Origin: Myxococcota bacterium | GTDB lineage: Bacteria > Myxococcota_A > SURF-8 > G963677705 | Length of the DNA stretch: 64,000 bases | Direction: 5' to 3' | Assembly: GCA_963677705.1 (NCBI GenBank) | Contig: OY782497.1 | Span: 276,285-340,284, forward strand | Part shown: piece after piece, positions 2,000 through 50,573 of the stretch | How the letters are laid out: the number at the start of each line of letters is the position of its first letter | Position numbering within the stretch: the stretch's first letter is position 1 | Program-made: the position numbers and the translations under genes | The notes under the pieces: generated by a model | The model's input: only the letters and a program-made list of their open reading frames with translations | Told to the model about the DNA's origin: nothing | Databases searched by the model: none

Positions 2000-2503
2000 T
2001 CAGGCCAGGCGCATACTCCAAAGAAAGGCGGGTAGGGTGTTCATTTTGAAATGAACCACGCCTTCACTGACCACCTGATTCGTATCCAGGTTGATGACTT
2101 CTCCATAGCAGGTGGTGTGGGTACGATGGAGGTTCCACGGGCGCAGATCACGTTTTTCACCACGGTATTCATAGGGCGTGCCTTGGGCATCCTGAAAGCG
2201 GAACTGATAGCGGATGCTGGCGTCTTGGAAATAACGCAAAGCTAGAATCCCCGTTACCGGAGCGTCATCGACCAGTCCATCCGCGCTCAGGCGCCCCCGT
2301 AGATCCGAAACCAGAAAATCCTTTCCCACCGGATTGAGAAATTTGGAGACATGCGGGCTGCCCCAGGTCACGGTAAAGGAAAAAGGCCGCTCCCTGCCGT
2401 TCACGTCATCCAGAAGGCGGTGGGTTCCGCTCATGGTTTCTTCTACCAGAAAACCGACACGCTGTGCCTGTACCATCGCTTGCAGTTCCGCCAAACGTCC
2501 CAT
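2000..2503 (-). CDS. hypothetical protein
   Basis: 167-aa ORF with coding-like composition, lying between murB and the HAD gene. I recognise no family. Confidence 0.4.
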   Translation of the reverse strand: MGRLAELQAMVQAQRVGFLVEETMSGTHRLLDDVNGRERPFSFTVTWGSPHVSKFLNPVGKDFLVSDLRGRLSADGLVDDAPVTGILALRYFQDASIRYQFRFQDAQGTPYEYRGEKRDLRPWNLHRTHTTCYGEVINLDTNQVVSEGVVHFKMNTLPAFLWSMRLA

Positions 2504-2646
2504 AAAGATACTCCTTCGTTAATGTCATCGTACTCATAACGCATCATGTCACGATTTCAGTTCCTGGGCAACCAAAACTTTGGGTTCTAATCCCCCAAGT
2601 GGGGGAAGCCTCCAAGGCCCACCATCAAGGATGGGGTTCCCCAGCT

Positions 2647-2774
2647 TGCTGACAACGTCATTTCCCCTCACTGGGATGCCTTTCGGCATCCTGTCTCTCC
2701 CAGAGGGAGAGACGACTTTTCCCTCTCCTGCGGGGAGAGGGAAGCGAACAGAGTGAGCGAGGGTGAGGGAAACC
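2647..2774 (+). repeat. MITE/REP-like intergenic repeat, copy 1 (three consecutive hairpins)
   Basis: About 90% identical to the reverse complement of 35304-35430. Internal palindromes: ggatgcctttcggcatcc, tctctccc-agag-ggagaga and ccctctcc-tgcg-gggagagg. Flanked by 22-bp direct repeats ggcccacc(a/c)tcaaggatggg at about 2618-2640 and 2793-2815. Confidence 0.65.
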
Positions 2775-3020
2775 GGGGTTTGTCAATAACCTCGGCCCAC
2801 CCTCAAGGATGGGAACGAGAGACGCCCTCCGTTTTGACAAACGCTGATCTTCCTGGAAATGGGATCAGAACTACAGGTTGTTCGAGGTCATCTGAGGCAC
2901 GACGGAGGCTCTTCGGAGATCTTCCATCTTCTTTTTCCATCGTCACCACGAATGCCTTCTGGGAAATCCGCTTCGTTTGTGATACAACTCGTGCCATGAT
3001 TTTCACCGTGAGGAGTTGGT

Positions 3021-3716
3021 ATGCGTAAGCTGCTCTTGTTCGACATTGATATGACCTTGGTTCGCCCCAAACCCGGTTCCAGCGCCATCGGCGCAATGTA
3101 TCAGGCGATGGAAGAACGCTTTCAGCGTCCCGCCCAGAGCTTCAAACCCATCCGTGTGGATGGCAAAACGGACCCGCTCATTGTTCAGGAATTGCATGAT
3201 GTCAACGGCATCCACTACAACCCGGACACAGACTACGAACCCTTTCTTGCCTGCTACCTGAAGCACCTGGATACCTTGTGCAAACAAGGAGAGCGGGAGG
3301 CGTTGCCCGGTGCGGTGGAGTTGGTAAGACTCCTTGAACAAGCCAACCGGTTTCATTTGGCAGTGGTGACGGGAAACGACCGGCGCGGCGCGGCGATGAA
3401 GTTGGCCGCCGTCGGCCTGGAAAAATCTTTCCCCGTCGGTGCCTATGGCTCCGATTCCGCCATTCGGGAAGACCTGGTTCCGCTGGCTTTGTCCAGAGCC
3501 AAAGAGCATTACCGTTATCCCATGTATTTGGAAAATACTGTGATCATCGGAGACAGCCACCGGGATGTGGAAGTCGCTTCGGCGCATGGAACCCGCTGCC
3601 TGGCCGTGGCCACGGGAAGTGCAACGGTTGACGAACTGGAGGCCGCCGGCCCGTGTTTGATCGTCGAGGATTTTTCGGACCCTGAAGCGGTTCTTTGGAT
3701 CTTGGATCGTATCTGA
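3021..3716 (+). CDS. HAD-superfamily hydrolase
   Basis: N-terminal DxDxT motif (LLFDIDMTLV). RBS GAGGAG upstream. 231 aa. Confidence 0.75.
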   Translation: MRKLLLFDIDMTLVRPKPGSSAIGAMYQAMEERFQRPAQSFKPIRVDGKTDPLIVQELHDVNGIHYNPDTDYEPFLACYLKHLDTLCKQGEREALPGAVELVRLLEQANRFHLAVVTGNDRRGAAMKLAAVGLEKSFPVGAYGSDSAIREDLVPLALSRAKEHYRYPMYLENTVIIGDSHRDVEVASAHGTRCLAVATGSATVDELEAAGPCLIVEDFSDPEAVLWILDRI

Positions 3717-41794: not shown

Positions 41795-42760
41795 CTAGCT
41801 GGAGGATTCATCCTCCGGCTTGTCGGCGGTAATCATGCGCACCACATCTTCGGCCTGTACCTTGTCCATGACATCGTCACGGGCTTGACAGTAGATTTCA
41901 CCGCCCAGACCACTTTGGTAGACGAGAAGAATCCGTAATTTGGTCAGTTCCAGCAGGGCCAAAAAGGTGGTGACAATGTCCTCTCGAACCAGCGCCTGGG
42001 TGAGCAGGTCACGAAACAAAACCCGCTTGGAAGCACGGAGAATACTGAAAATCTCATGGATTTTCTCATCCAGGGTCACCGTTTCACGGTCCAGGGTGTG
42101 AACGTATTGCTTCTGCTCTTCGTCCTCACGCTGGGAGAGGATCTCCGCAAAAGCTTTGACCAGCGTGAACACGCTGACTTCTTCCAGGTTCAGGTCTGCG
42201 TCATCTTCCTTTTTCACCGAGCGTTCACCCGGCGTAGGGAAGACATCCCGGCCTAACAGCGGCAGGCTGTCCAGCTTGCGTGCCGCGTCGATATACTTCT
42301 TTTTCTGAAGCAGGCAATCCATCAAAAACGCGGTCATTTCCTCAATGTCAATGGCATCTTCCTCGTCGTCTTCTCCGGTGTCGGGAAGCAGACTGCGGCT
42401 CTTCATGTGAATCAGCAACGCCGCATACCAGAGGAAATCCGCAGCGACATCCAGGTTCAGCTCCTGCATTTTCTCAATCTGACCCAGGTAGCCATCAGTG
42501 ATGTCGGAAAGCGAGATATTGAAGATGTCCATCTCTTTTTCTTGAATCAGGTAGAGCAGCAGATCCAGTGGACCCGCCCATTCGCCAGCCTGCACCTGGA
42601 AGCTTTGCTCCCTGGCATAAGGGCTTTCCGGCAAGGGTTTCTTGCGCTCGTTTGTCTCTGGACTGGCTTTGTTCTCGCTCACCGGAAAACTCCAAGAATC
42701 CTGGGGATTGGACAGGGCTAACCACGCTAATTCTCTAGCGCAATGGTCTTCGTTTGGCAA
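41795..42760 (-). CDS. scpA: segregation and condensation protein A (ScpA)
   Basis: ScpA signature WAGPLDLLLYLIQEKEMDIFNISLSDITDGYL. Start uncertain because of N-terminal overlap with the upstream gene. Confidence 0.8.
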   Translation of the reverse strand: MPNEDHCARELAWLALSNPQDSWSFPVSENKASPETNERKKPLPESPYAREQSFQVQAGEWAGPLDLLLYLIQEKEMDIFNISLSDITDGYLGQIEKMQELNLDVAADFLWYAALLIHMKSRSLLPDTGEDDEEDAIDIEEMTAFLMDCLLQKKKYIDAARKLDSLPLLGRDVFPTPGERSVKKEDDADLNLEEVSVFTLVKAFAEILSQREDEEQKQYVHTLDRETVTLDEKIHEIFSILRASKRVLFRDLLTQALVREDIVTTFLALLELTKLRILLVYQSGLGGEIYCQARDDVMDKVQAEDVVRMITADKPEDESSS

Positions 42761-43962
42761 GGCATTTGTAGCCCTTGGGAGAGCAAAAAGTAAAAGCAGA
42801 GGGCAAGTTCACCGTCAAACCAACTGTTGTGTACCAGGCCCGTCAGAGCGAAAACCAGCACCACGGCCCGAAGCCAGAGGGAAGAGCCTTTGGCATCCAG
42901 CCAAAGGGTGGACAGGAGCCAGAGGTAAGCCACGGCTCCCAAAACACCGCTTTCCAGCCAAAACCCTAAGAAATCCATGTGGGTTCCACTGCGGATAAGG
43001 CTTTGTGGGTGCAGCACGGAAAAGAGGGGATCAAGGCTCAGGAAGCTTCGACCATAGCCCAGACCAAGGGGAAAGCCCGATGAGAGCCCCTGTTCACTGA
43101 CTCCCCAAATGGCCAGGCGGTTGGACCACCCCTCCAGGCTTTGCATCTCCTGCCAGCGAGGAAGAAAGGCCAGCACAACCAGGGCGCAAATCAGGCCGCC
43201 GAGGAAAATTAAACGGGATTTCCCTCGTTTTTCAGGAAGTGATTGCCAGAAAAGATACCCTTGGCTCAGCAGCAGGGCCAGCAAGGCTGCACGACTTTGA
43301 CTGGCCAGGACGCAGAGGCTTAGGGCGATCAAGGCCAGGCGACGAGGCCAGACCGAGGCGTTTTCCTGCCCAGGCCAGCCGCTTACCCAGGCTGCCAGCA
43401 GGGCGCAGAGCGTCCCAAAGGTGTGATGCCGATTGAAAAAGCCGATGGCGGCAAAGGAGTTCCCATCCAGACGGAGAATCTTCGCCTGTTTCCAGTGGGC
43501 AAGGTCTAGGCCCGTCAGGTTTTGCAGGATGGCATATATAGCGAGTAGGAGAGCCAACCCGGCGAAAGCTTGTTGCCGCTGGGGTGAAAAAAACAGATGG
43601 CTTGTCCTCAATTCGTTTTGTGGGCTTGAGCGAAGGCTGGAGAACACGGGAAGCATCAGCCAGACCCACAGGCCGCCCATGCGTGGGCCATCCCAACCAA
43701 GAGCAGAGCCATGAAGCCAGGATGTCAGGATGCTACCCAAAAGCAAGGTCAGGGGAAGATACACCGAAAAGCGGGGGCTTGTTTTGAATGCCCCGGAAAG
43801 AAGCCAGAACACAAAGCCCAGAACCAGCAAGGCTTGCGTCAGCCAAAGGCTGGTCGCCAGCGCAAAAGGCATCGCCAGGGTAACCACGGCTAACACGTGA
43901 GAAGCCTTTGAATGCGGCGATGATGGGAAGGCTGGCTTGGTCATCGTCTCCTCACACCTCAC
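42727..43962 (-). CDS. polytopic membrane protein, O-antigen ligase/polymerase (Wzy_C)-like
   Basis: About 11 TM helices with a large periplasmic loop, the topology typical of O-antigen ligase family members. Weak family assignment. Confidence 0.45.
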   Translation of the reverse strand: MRCEETMTKPAFPSSPHSKASHVLAVVTLAMPFALATSLWLTQALLVLGFVFWLLSGAFKTSPRFSVYLPLTLLLGSILTSWLHGSALGWDGPRMGGLWVWLMLPVFSSLRSSPQNELRTSHLFFSPQRQQAFAGLALLLAIYAILQNLTGLDLAHWKQAKILRLDGNSFAAIGFFNRHHTFGTLCALLAAWVSGWPGQENASVWPRRLALIALSLCVLASQSRAALLALLLSQGYLFWQSLPEKRGKSRLIFLGGLICALVVLAFLPRWQEMQSLEGWSNRLAIWGVSEQGLSSGFPLGLGYGRSFLSLDPLFSVLHPQSLIRSGTHMDFLGFWLESGVLGAVAYLWLLSTLWLDAKGSSLWLRAVVLVFALTGLVHNSWFDGELALCFYFLLSQGLQMPCQTKTIALEN

Positions 43963-44230
43963 CGGGACGCCTTTCGGCTGTTCATTGAGCGTATGGGTAC
44001 CAGTATGGACCGGCCAGATAGGTATCAGATTTTCCGGGTCGGGTCAATGGGCCCGACCTGCGGTTTCAGGGCCGTCCAATCGTGAAAGGGGGCTCTCGTG
44101 TTGAACCGAGCCCACCCCCCGTTTGAATGAAGAACATTCTACAAAATGAAGAGCGTTCTACAATGAGGTGTGCCTTGGGGTGAATCGTTTCAGTTCAGCT
44201 TTATCGCTTCGCCTATTCCGGTCGTGCCCT

Positions 44231-45037: not shown

Positions 45038-45294
45038 GATCTGTCTCTAAGGTTAACGACTTGCTAAAGTAGAGCTGTCTAACAACAAGGATGCAGACTA
45101 ATATCTTAAGGCTTATCAAAATGTCAAGCCTTTTCTTGAGTCCTTGGGGGATGACTTGATCTTGTTATTCCACGGTGCGGAATTGTCTTGACAAGAAAAC
45201 GTTTTCAGGTACTCTGATACCATTGCTACTGCCTCAAAACGATGAACGGAATTGCTTCAAACTGCGTGGATTCGCTATCCAGGGAGTGGAACGG

Positions 45295-46197
45295 ATGAGC
45301 CAACATCGTCTGACATTCACCGGAACGGGAAATGCGTTACGGTTTCGGTCCTATTACGGCCTGGAGCGTTTATTCAACAATAACCTGTTGATTGAAACAA
45401 CGGACCAGCACGGTCACGAACGCAAACTGATGGTCGATTGCGGACGGAATCTCCCGGAGGCTTTGGAAGCGCTCAGCCAGAAGCGCCAGAAGCTAGGGGC
45501 CGAACCGCTGGATTTCATGTCCATCACGGATATTTTTATTACTCATCTACATGCCGACCATGTGGGAAGTCTGGAAGACAAGGCCTTTATGGACATGTTT
45601 GTCTCCGGGTTCATTTATGGTCAGCGCAGGCGGACGAAGCTTTATGGAAAGCTCCTGTTTTTGCGGGAGTTGTGGGACCGCTGCCTCGCCGGTGGTTTGA
45701 CCAGCATCGAAGGAATACGCAACACGCTGGATACCTACTTTGATGTGATCGAACTCCGAAACAAAGAAGGCGTGGAGCCGGAGTTTTCCATTGGCAAGCT
45801 TCGTTTCCAACTGGTTGCGACGGACCATGTCCGGGTGGATCATCCTCAGGATTACCCTAGTTGGGGCGTGGTGGTTCGAGACGAACAAGACCGTTCTTTC
45901 TTCTTTACCGGAGATACCAAAGCCAGGCTGGATCTCTACGAGCCGATCTTCGACTCGGTTGATCTGGTTTTCCATGATTGCGAACTGGCTGATTTCCCTG
46001 GAAGCATTCACGCACAGTTCCATGAGTTGGCCCAGTTCCCGGAAGAGTACCGGCGTAAGATGTATCTGGTTCACTACAGTCCGTACTACACCAAGCCGGA
46101 TTGGAAAACCAAGGTGGAGGAGAACGGCTTTCTCGGTTTTTGGGAACAGCAGCAGACGGTGGACTTCGATCAGCTTTTCAACGCTGTAGGAACGTGA
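45295..46197 (+). CDS. metallo-beta-lactamase-fold hydrolase
   Basis: HxHxDH motif (THLHADHVGS). GGGAG RBS. The ORF is open from 45175. Confidence 0.7.
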   Translation: MSQHRLTFTGTGNALRFRSYYGLERLFNNNLLIETTDQHGHERKLMVDCGRNLPEALEALSQKRQKLGAEPLDFMSITDIFITHLHADHVGSLEDKAFMDMFVSGFIYGQRRRTKLYGKLLFLRELWDRCLAGGLTSIEGIRNTLDTYFDVIELRNKEGVEPEFSIGKLRFQLVATDHVRVDHPQDYPSWGVVVRDEQDRSFFFTGDTKARLDLYEPIFDSVDLVFHDCELADFPGSIHAQFHELAQFPEEYRRKMYLVHYSPYYTKPDWKTKVEENGFLGFWEQQQTVDFDQLFNAVGT

Positions 46198-50013: not shown

Positions 50014-50101
50014 GGAGAGCTGTCCGAGAGGCCGAAGGAGCACGATTGGAAATCGTGTGTACCGCAAGGTACCCAGGGTTCGAATCCCTGGCTCTCCGCC
50101 A
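50014..50101 (+). tRNA. tRNA-Ser (anticodon GGA)
   Basis: 88 nt. GGAGAGC/GCTCTCC acceptor stem. Anticodon loop TTGGAAA between CACGA and TCGTG. Long variable arm (type II). TTCGAAT T-loop. Encoded CCA. Confidence 0.9.
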
Positions 50102-50118
50102 TTTCCTGGTTCCCTATA

Positions 50119-50142
50119 CCCTCGCCCACGCGAGGGTTTCTT
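50119..50142 (+). terminator. intrinsic terminator after tRNA-Ser
   Basis: ccctcgc-ccac-gcgaggg followed by tttctt. Confidence 0.5.
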
Positions 50143-50573
50143 ATGGTGGCCGGGCCCTGTGCGACGAGACCCGCGAACCCCGTCAGATCCGAAAGGAAGC
50201 AGCGGTAGCGGTAAGTCTGGTGTGCTGCGGGTGTCCCGGCTGCCGCCTTTTATGCACGGATCCCATTCTATTCAGCTTGGTAGGAAGCCGTTTTTTGGCG
50301 AGGAATTCCATTCGTTTGGGATTCGGCATTCTGAATGTCCGATGTTCGGACTCTCTTTTTAATGTAAGATGCTTCAAAGTTGTATGAAATTGAATAAAAT
50401 GTTGCGTTCTTGGAGGGTGAAGGAGGATTTCTCCGCGTCTTTTCTGGCGATCCACTCAAGATCATTCCTGCCTGGTCGATACCTAAACTGGGAGATATTG
50501 CAGACTAACCCGGTGATCCGAGTCTGGATTCCGGAGAAAAAGCCACGGTAAGGTAGAGACGAGAACGGGAGAG

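Follow-up and report, generated by a model that had tools for sequence, protein, structure and literature searches.

A G+C-rich, multi-hairpin repeat of an uncultivated Myxococcota-like bacterium is probably a miniature inverted-repeat transposable element

A repeat of about 150 bp, rich in hairpins, occurs twice and in opposite orientations in a 64,000-nucleotide stretch of DNA from an uncultivated Myxococcota-like bacterium (assembly GCA_963677705.1, contig OY782497.1, positions 276,285 to 340,284). This whole stretch is here referred to as the window, and positions are counted from its first letter. The window is ordinary chromosome, with genes for MurB, MnmG/MnmE, ScpA/B and a type II secretion operon, together with signal recognition particle (SRP) RNA and tRNA-Ser. 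What kind of sequence is this repeat, and how did it reach its present positions? A preliminary description, made from the window alone, had labelled it as an element resembling either a miniature transposable element with inverted repeats (MITE) or the REP sequences (repetitive extragenic palindromes). Our analysis supports the first half of this label. We put at about 70% the probability that we are dealing with a non-autonomous, MITE-type DNA transposon, which would be a new family of a known kind. As a selfish element it would be of an ordinary sort, and it opens no long-standing question.

We first describe the copies. By blastn, copy 1 (2646–2775, forward strand) and copy 2 (35304–35431, reverse strand) are 89.2% identical over 130 nt, as the earlier estimate of about 90% between two inverted copies had it. 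A block of 36 nt (CCTCACTGGGATGCCTTTCGGCATCCTGTCTCTCCC) is identical in both and had 0 matches in 100 shuffles of the window. The 5' motif GCTGACAA(C/A)GTCAT, also written TTGCTGACAA(C/A)GTCAT, is found within the window at copies 1 and 2 only. A remnant had been proposed at 43966–43995. It is real, with 20 of 22 bases matching the element, but it lies at 43957–43978. No shuffle yielded such a third match, and the chance expectation for partial matches to all 24-mers of the element in the window is 0.05. Weaker similarity reaches back to about 43927, and the truncated, diverged 5' fragment (43927–43980, forward strand) overlaps the start of a Wzy_C-type gene (42727–43962, reverse strand).

A third full copy was found through its translation. 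The concatenated six-frame translation of copies 1 and 2 was searched against a protein collection with a word index, and a single protein was returned (P0001), whose called N-terminus reads through the element. It is encoded at a locus (L124) on contig ctg97373l (1.08 Mb) of a sister assembly. From the same sample comes contig ctg97512l (4.08 Mb; ENA ERZ21831104), which carries the sister-strain locus of copy 1 (L003), with the gene for the HAD-hydrolase protein adjacent to this copy, and is about 98% identical to the window in the copy 1 intergenic region. Copy 3, on the reverse strand at L124 10060–10210, shares 86% identity with copy 1. A counterpart of the protein (P0057), identical at 339 of 340 residues, is encoded on the window strain's own contig (5,184,080 bp), and therefore copy 3 is present in both strains. 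With a full copy on another contig, the earlier view of a repeat family, as opposed to a local duplication, holds. A covariance model was then built from four sequences, namely copies 1–3 and the sister-strain ortholog of copy 1. The three copies scored 170.6, 149.2 and 163.3 bits, respectively, and the ortholog 180.4 bits. Run over the window, L003 and L124, the model revealed no further or decayed copies; one 14-bit match in L124, located in coding sequence, was discarded as chance. The analysis had sequence for about 106 kb, out of a genome of roughly 5.2 Mb. The full copies stand in either orientation and at unrelated loci.

Alignment of the copies with their flanks shows that the unit common to them is about 150 bp, from TTG(C)TGACAA to TTG(T/G)CA, and not about 125 bp as first described, with a core of 135–140 nt. 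The inserted segments measure 149–158 bp, and their G+C content is 0.55–0.57. The three hairpins and the (c/a)GTCAT motif reported for both window copies are indeed present in both. The hairpins (P2–P4) are, however, not simply arranged in tandem: they are enclosed by a helix P1 (CCCTCACT/GGTGAGGG, that is CCCTCAC/GTGAGGG) and by an outer helix P0 (TGACAA/TTGTCA). Five distinct helices are thus distinguished, and a closed four-way junction is predicted for every copy. In copy 1, on the forward strand, hairpin P2 (GGGATGCC-TTTC-GGCATCCT) occupies 2673–2692; it is identical in all four sequences, and on the other strand its loop reads GAAA. The predicted fold places P3 (GTCTCTCCC-AGA-GGGAGAGAC, followed by CTTTT) at 2693–2713 and P4 (TTCCCTCTCC-TGCGG-GGAGAGGGAA) at 2719–2743. 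An unpaired purine-rich segment (2744–2761) then lies 5' of the 3' strand of P1, and in the alignment it varies more than any other part of the element.

At the DNA level, P0 and P1 together form an imperfect terminal inverted repeat (TIR) of about 23 bp. The element ends, TGACAA..TTTCCCCTCAC and GTGAGGGAAA..TTGTCA, bound a core of about 136 bp. In copy 1 the 5' arm TGACAAcgtcaTTTCCCCTCACT, which contains the 5' strands of P0 and P1 and is conserved in all copies, is located at 2650–2672, and the 3' arm GGTGAGGGAAAccggggTTTGTCA at 2762–2785, both recognized by sequence and predicted pairing. When TGACAAcgtcaTTTCCCCTCAC is compared with the reverse complement of GTGAGGGAAAccggggTTTGTCA, 17 of 24 columns match, and the inverted repeats are kept in all copies. 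In copy 2 the 3' arm is longer, with ATGCTTA paired to AAGTCAT. Folding of the unit, which had been put forward as a check, gave a stable predicted structure, with z scores of -4.1 to -6.1 across the three copies. The minimum free energies are -71.7 kcal/mol for copy 1 (z -4.1), -74.8 kcal/mol for copy 2 (z -6.05) and -72.6 kcal/mol for copy 3 (z -4.4). The reverse strand of copy 1 folds as well as the forward one (-71.0 kcal/mol, z -5.3), and therefore folding picks no strand. The element is quasi-palindromic, its own covariance model giving the reverse strand 31.7–40.9 bits.

The site of copy 1 provides evidence for insertion. The direct repeats that had been noted on its two sides are present, as 20 bp with one mismatch (GGCCCACC(A/C)TCAAGGATGGG), and they are identical at 20 of 20 positions in the sister strain. 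The left copy (GGCCCACCATCAAGGATGGG) lies at 2616–2635 and the right one (GGCCCACCCTCAAGGATGGG) at 2794–2813, both on the forward strand, which leaves 158 bp between them (2636–2793, forward strand) as the whole inserted segment. The same 20-mer occurs once at L124 16010–16029, in an uninterrupted paralog of the site. When the 158 bp and one of the repeats are taken out of the window, the remaining sequence aligns with L124 15985–16090 through the junction without a break, at 78% in 74 nt (E 1e-11); with MAFFT the alignment spans about 110 nt. Only one copy of the 20-mer stands in the uninterrupted paralog, and the 20-bp repeats at copy 1 are therefore duplicated target DNA. The element thereby accounts for the 20-bp direct repeats near a HAD-hydrolase gene. 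The empty-site alignment also shows that copy 1 interrupts a second intergenic repeat family, here designated family 2, whose left half is at 2585–2635 and whose right half is at 2794–2872 (forward strand). Family 2 is about 110 nt long and occurs at two or more unrelated loci (the interrupted one in the window and L124 15985–16090). It consists of a CCCCnAAnnGGGG hairpin, then GGCCCACCMTCAAGGATGGG, and then AAC..GA..CGCC.TCCGTT..ACAAACGC.

Copy 3 provides a second empty-site reconstruction, inside a gene. It is an in-frame insertion of 53 codons, antisense to the gene, in the signal-peptide region of L124 10001–11023. The encoded protein, P0001, matches Pfam YkuD, and the open reading frame (ORF) is intact in both strains. 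The copy is flanked by a pair of CAAGCTTYGG sequences 159 bp apart, a multiple of three, which constitutes a 10-bp duplication with 9 of 10 positions identical. Deleting 159 bp, that is the element and one CAAGCTTYGG, keeps the frame and yields the N-terminus MKGWFSRIERRKIQSSFGGLLVFLGVMLLSVPSALA followed by DD. This N-terminus combines a positive charge in the n-region with a hydrophobic core and a cleavage site of the AxA type; it is a canonical signal peptide, of the kind expected for a periplasmic L,D-transpeptidase. Where copies 1 and 2 read GTCAT, copy 3 has GTTTT, and it thereby lacks the stop codon present in that frame in the other two. The insertion accounts for an otherwise odd N-terminal extension of 66 residues in this YkuD-family protein.

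Copy 2 (35282–35434, reverse strand; identified by blastn, with its core TGACAA..TTGGCA running from 35427 down to 35288) lies between convergent genes. At its 3' end it shares sequence with the final four codons and the stop (35297–35299) of the ORF at 32873–35299, and the element thus accounts for the C-terminal codons of this large cysteine-rich ORF. Adjoining copy 2, at 35439–35456, is a hairpin (GGGCACC-ACAA-GGTGCCC) flanked by T-rich sequence on either strand. From its sequence it is likely the bidirectional terminator of the two convergent genes and lies outside the repeat: it is absent from the other copies. The consensus terminator scan did not flag it, and copy 2 lies beyond it. The same scan gave a terminator-like call within the window copies for P3 of copy 1 only. 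Both copies had been described as lying downstream of genes, with a role as terminators or transcript stabilizers. Copy 1 is instead found between the divergent genes 2000–2503 (reverse strand) and 3021–3716 (forward strand), and only copy 2 is 3' of genes.

We consider that these results are best explained by a MITE-type transposon. In prokaryotes, MITEs are defined as stably folding elements of less than 500 bp that have TIRs of 4–30 bp and direct repeats on their flanks (PMC10969869). QMITE2 of Coxiella, for example, has direct repeats of 7–9 bp, TIRs of 23–29 bp and a core of 113–145 bp (PMC10969869). The present element is below 500 bp and non-coding, has TIRs, is flanked by target duplications at copies 1 and 3, albeit of atypically unequal length, and exists in multiple dispersed copies. 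It has no coding capacity: no gene was called at copy 1, and the six frames hold only about 40 codons. The gene called through copy 3 is a YkuD-family host gene and represents no protein of the element. In this model, a transposase encoded elsewhere in the genome would recognize the inverted-repeat ends and/or the hairpins and move the element in trans. The effects on the host would be by-products of the landing site, in that a signal peptide would have gained 53 residues from copy 3, an ORF would take its last four codons and its stop from copy 2, and copy 1 would have been placed in a divergent promoter region.

Like the Correia/NEMIS elements of Neisseria, the ERIC elements of enterobacteria and QMITE2, the element is about 150 bp long and non-coding, with imperfect TIRs of about 23 bp. 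It also shares with them the target duplications, the dispersal in both orientations at mostly intergenic positions, and a very stable predicted fold. It differs from them in its G+C-richness, in its long and unequal duplications, and in its sequence, for which no similarity to any element was seen in the collections searched. Moreover, its interior is composed of three separate hairpins in a four-way junction, whereas theirs is one long hairpin. The Rickettsia palindromic elements, also of about 150 bp, are inserted in frame into genes and translated within the host protein (PMC10969869). Copy 3 resembles them in this respect (159 bp, 53 codons, the ORF open in both strains). However, only one of the three copies is intragenic here, no sequence relationship is seen, and the lineage is a different one. 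To the MITEs it would add a family that is rich in G+C, stems from the poorly sampled Myxococcota-like lineages and has two empty sites that can be cleanly reconstructed.

Several observations weigh against this interpretation. First, as to the family, only three copies and one fragment are documented; no presence/absence polymorphism was seen, copies 1 and 3 being in both strains; and the element is G+C-rich, whereas MITEs are typically A+T-rich. Second, no transposase, integrase or Y1 domain is present in about 45 ORFs of the window. Third, the junctions are irregular. The duplication is 20 bp at copy 1 and 10 bp at copy 3, and between duplication and inverted repeat there are bases that the copies do not share, 14 and 8 of them at copy 1 and 2 and 12 at copy 3. 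Such unequal duplications and unshared junction bases are unusual for a single DDE transposase, and over the three copies the junctions are at odds with textbook cut-and-paste transposition. Moreover, the 5' filler of copy 1, GTTCCCCAGCTTG, resembles the host sequence flanking copy 3, GTTCCCGAAGCTTG. At copy 2 the flanking repeat is just 8 bp with one mismatch, and the 'restored' C-terminus is uninformative. A 10-bp repeat like that of copy 3 is by itself expected by chance in about one of 10 tries; it carries weight because of its position and the restored signal peptide.

We further examined how the copies have diverged, counting changes against the majority consensus across independent copies. 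Paired core positions show 4 changes in 72 and unpaired ones 13 in 33 (Fisher's exact p = 4e-5, or 1e-3 with adjacent changes merged), and the helices change about 7-fold more slowly than the unpaired parts. Two of the four changes at paired positions break pairs, both in copy 3 (one in P3 and one in P4), and no compensatory changes are found in the core among the aligned copies. In a comparison of window 2500–3025 with L003 9480–10005, copy 1 of the window and its ortholog have seven differing positions, six of them unpaired and one in P0. The sister strain has the states common to copies 2 and 3, therefore it is copy 1 of the window that holds the derived changes. The slow change of the helices shows either selection on them or their recent common descent, and it is no proof of an RNA structure. 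For a MITE-type element, the constraint may reflect recognition by the transposase or the stability of the structure.

The alternative that survives best, although we regard it as unlikely, is that the copies are paralogous genes of a structured RNA or small RNA related to whalefall-1 (RF01762), each half of the element, with its CU-rich hairpin, variable hairpin and purine-rich tail, being a functional RNA. No Rfam family matched the element at threshold, and whalefall-1 was the best match when the thresholds were relaxed. The match falls on the reverse strand of the left half and scores 22.7, 24.8 and 17.8 bits in the three copies; searched by itself, the element gives E values of 1e-4 to 2e-2. 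The right half matches on the forward strand with 16.6–18 bits, and the matches to the element are the only ones to whalefall-1 in the whole window. All of these scores are nevertheless far under the 37-bit threshold, and at the scale of the window the E values are 0.04 and 0.18.

The resemblance extends to the order of parts: a CU-rich hairpin (UCUCUCC..GGAGAGA), CAG, a hairpin with a stable tetraloop, which in P2 is the GAAA of the reverse strand, and a purine tail (A)GGGUGAGG. The left half of the element has this two-hairpin layout on the reverse strand, while in the right half the second hairpin is missing, leaving the first one and the tail. whalefall-1 was described as two hairpins with a purine-rich tail, in the form of single small-RNA candidates (RF01762; Weinberg et al. 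2010, PMC2864571), and the text of that paper mentions neither pairing nor mobility (PMC2864571). In the seed alignment (PMC2864571, supplementary files 53 and 175), however, 12 of the 16 RNAs make up six divergent inverted pairs, 33–57 nt apart and on different contigs. One of these pairs folds as a closed multibranch structure like that of the element.

The spacer of the whale-fall pairs contains a TTGACA-N17-TATAT-like promoter. In contrast, the centre of the element is only 8 nt long and has no promoter, and a scan found no sigma-70-type promoter at copy 1 or copy 2. The whale-fall contigs are, moreover, A+T-rich and come from another organism. The constraint on helices would agree with an RNA function; on the other hand, compensatory changes are lacking and copy 3 has its two broken pairs. 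Furthermore, copy 3 is antisense in a coding region and copy 1 lies in another repeat, each with a target duplication, which is the behaviour of an insertion and not of a gene. We therefore take the resemblance to whalefall-1 as a lead to a possible relationship and not as membership of the family. A more inclusive idea, tentative and rather doubtful, is that the element and the inverted whalefall-1 pairs are members of a single superfamily of quasi-palindromic, mobile elements. If this were true, whalefall-1, an orphan 'sRNA' of Rfam for which a whale-fall metagenome is the only known source, would represent an arm of some MITE-like element, and the long unequal duplications with their filler bases would point to an integration unlike that of standard DDE-transposase MITEs. 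In any case, the element offers a testable idea on whalefall-1, an Rfam family of unknown function.

The irregular junctions can also be accounted for if no dedicated transposase is involved, and a hairpin-rich fragment was copied or captured in double-strand-break repair, template switching or reverse transcription. Long and variable duplications, the unshared filler bases on both sides of copies 1 and 3, and the filler of copy 1, which looks like a carried-over donor flank given its likeness to the flank of copy 3, would all agree with such a capture. However, the inverted-repeat ends are well defined and conserved in all copies, and one unit has been copied at least three times. In addition, some insertion sequence (IS) families make variable or long target duplications. 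We consider capture quite improbable.

Very unlikely, in our view, is a REP-type element or a REP doublet forming a hairpin (REPIN), in which short inverted extragenic palindromes are replicated by a single-copy REP-associated tyrosine transposase (RAYT; Y1/HUH) acting on single-stranded hairpins. The hairpins, the mostly intergenic positions, the inverted-symmetric layout, the conserved stems and the score of the reverse strand with the element's own model are what the two have in common. They differ in unit size and architecture, about 150 bp with distinct helices standing against two inverted REPs of 20–25 nt, as well as in the intragenic position of copy 3. No Y1 transposase is encoded within the window. 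Moreover, the Y1-transposase mechanism is not known to produce target duplications, which are found at copies 1 and 3. Hence, of the initial MITE/REP-like label, the MITE part stands, by virtue of the third copy, the inverted repeats and the duplications, and the REP-like part does not, the unit being a 150-bp structure of several hairpins as opposed to a palindrome of 20–40 nt.

Other candidates were rejected more directly. An intrinsic terminator or 3'-UTR (untranslated region) stabilizer is not compatible with copy 1 in a divergent intergenic region and copy 3 in a 5' coding region, two of the three copies not being at the 3' end of any gene. A riboswitch or other cis-regulator was dismissed for want of a consistent downstream gene, and an integron attC site, a retron non-coding RNA or a CRISPR for want of matching motifs or neighbouring genes. 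Neither the scan nor inspection by eye showed the conserved 5' motif to match a promoter of the sigma-70 or sigma-54 type.

We also searched other sequence collections, in none of which the element was found in another organism. The core pattern, run against 185,579 species genomes, returned just two unrelated loci, one on a Deinococcus plasmid and one in a Chlorobiota metagenome-assembled genome (MAG) with hairpin repeats of its own. A looser pattern, run against metagenome contigs, proved too permissive: among the at least 120 chance matches listed, none had the rest of the element. Four scans of viral contigs gave nothing or chance 16–18-mers, BLAST against plasmids and phages gave no match, and an exhaustive profile search with frame +2 gave two unrelated repeat proteins only. 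The repeats of the Chlorobiota MAG (JBGAKH010000003.1; L002 2380–2620 and 6160–6400) are tandem units of about 80 nt, each of which contains a hairpin (GGGATGCC-loop-GGCATCC) and a palindrome (CCTAGGGTC..GACCCTAGG). By sequence, this is a different REP-like array, which has only the hairpin in common with the element.

Homologues of the neighbouring proteins are found in MAGs of Myxococcota or Deltaproteobacteria. The nearest ortholog of a neighbouring protein of 167 aa is only 54% identical; therefore the lineage is poorly sampled and offers no close relatives for an empty-site test. Two related genomes have a homologous radical-SAM and Cys-rich locus (L130 and L131), and no element is present there.

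Some minor observations were made on the surrounding genes. A gene of the radical SAM/SPASM type stands directly upstream of one for a secreted protein with Cys-rich repeats, in the window (35542–38166, reverse strand) as well as in the two related genomes (L130 8850–11404; L131 8846–11356), and the conservation of this arrangement suggests a putative maturase-substrate pair. Other secreted ORFs of the window that are rich in D/E and Cys, for example 358–765 and 32873–35299, have no Pfam family. At 45175–46197 (forward strand), in an ordinary chromosomal context, a protein with a metallo-beta-lactamase fold scores above the threshold of the Pfam family Anti-Pycsar Apyc1 (68 bits, cut-off 50). 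Finally, a tRNA-Ser(GGA) gene is followed immediately by a small SRP RNA at 50014–50244 (forward strand), and a match to 'Plastid-psbl-rps4' at 50049–50098 (reverse strand), which lies antisense within the tRNA-Ser gene, is probably an artefact of that gene.

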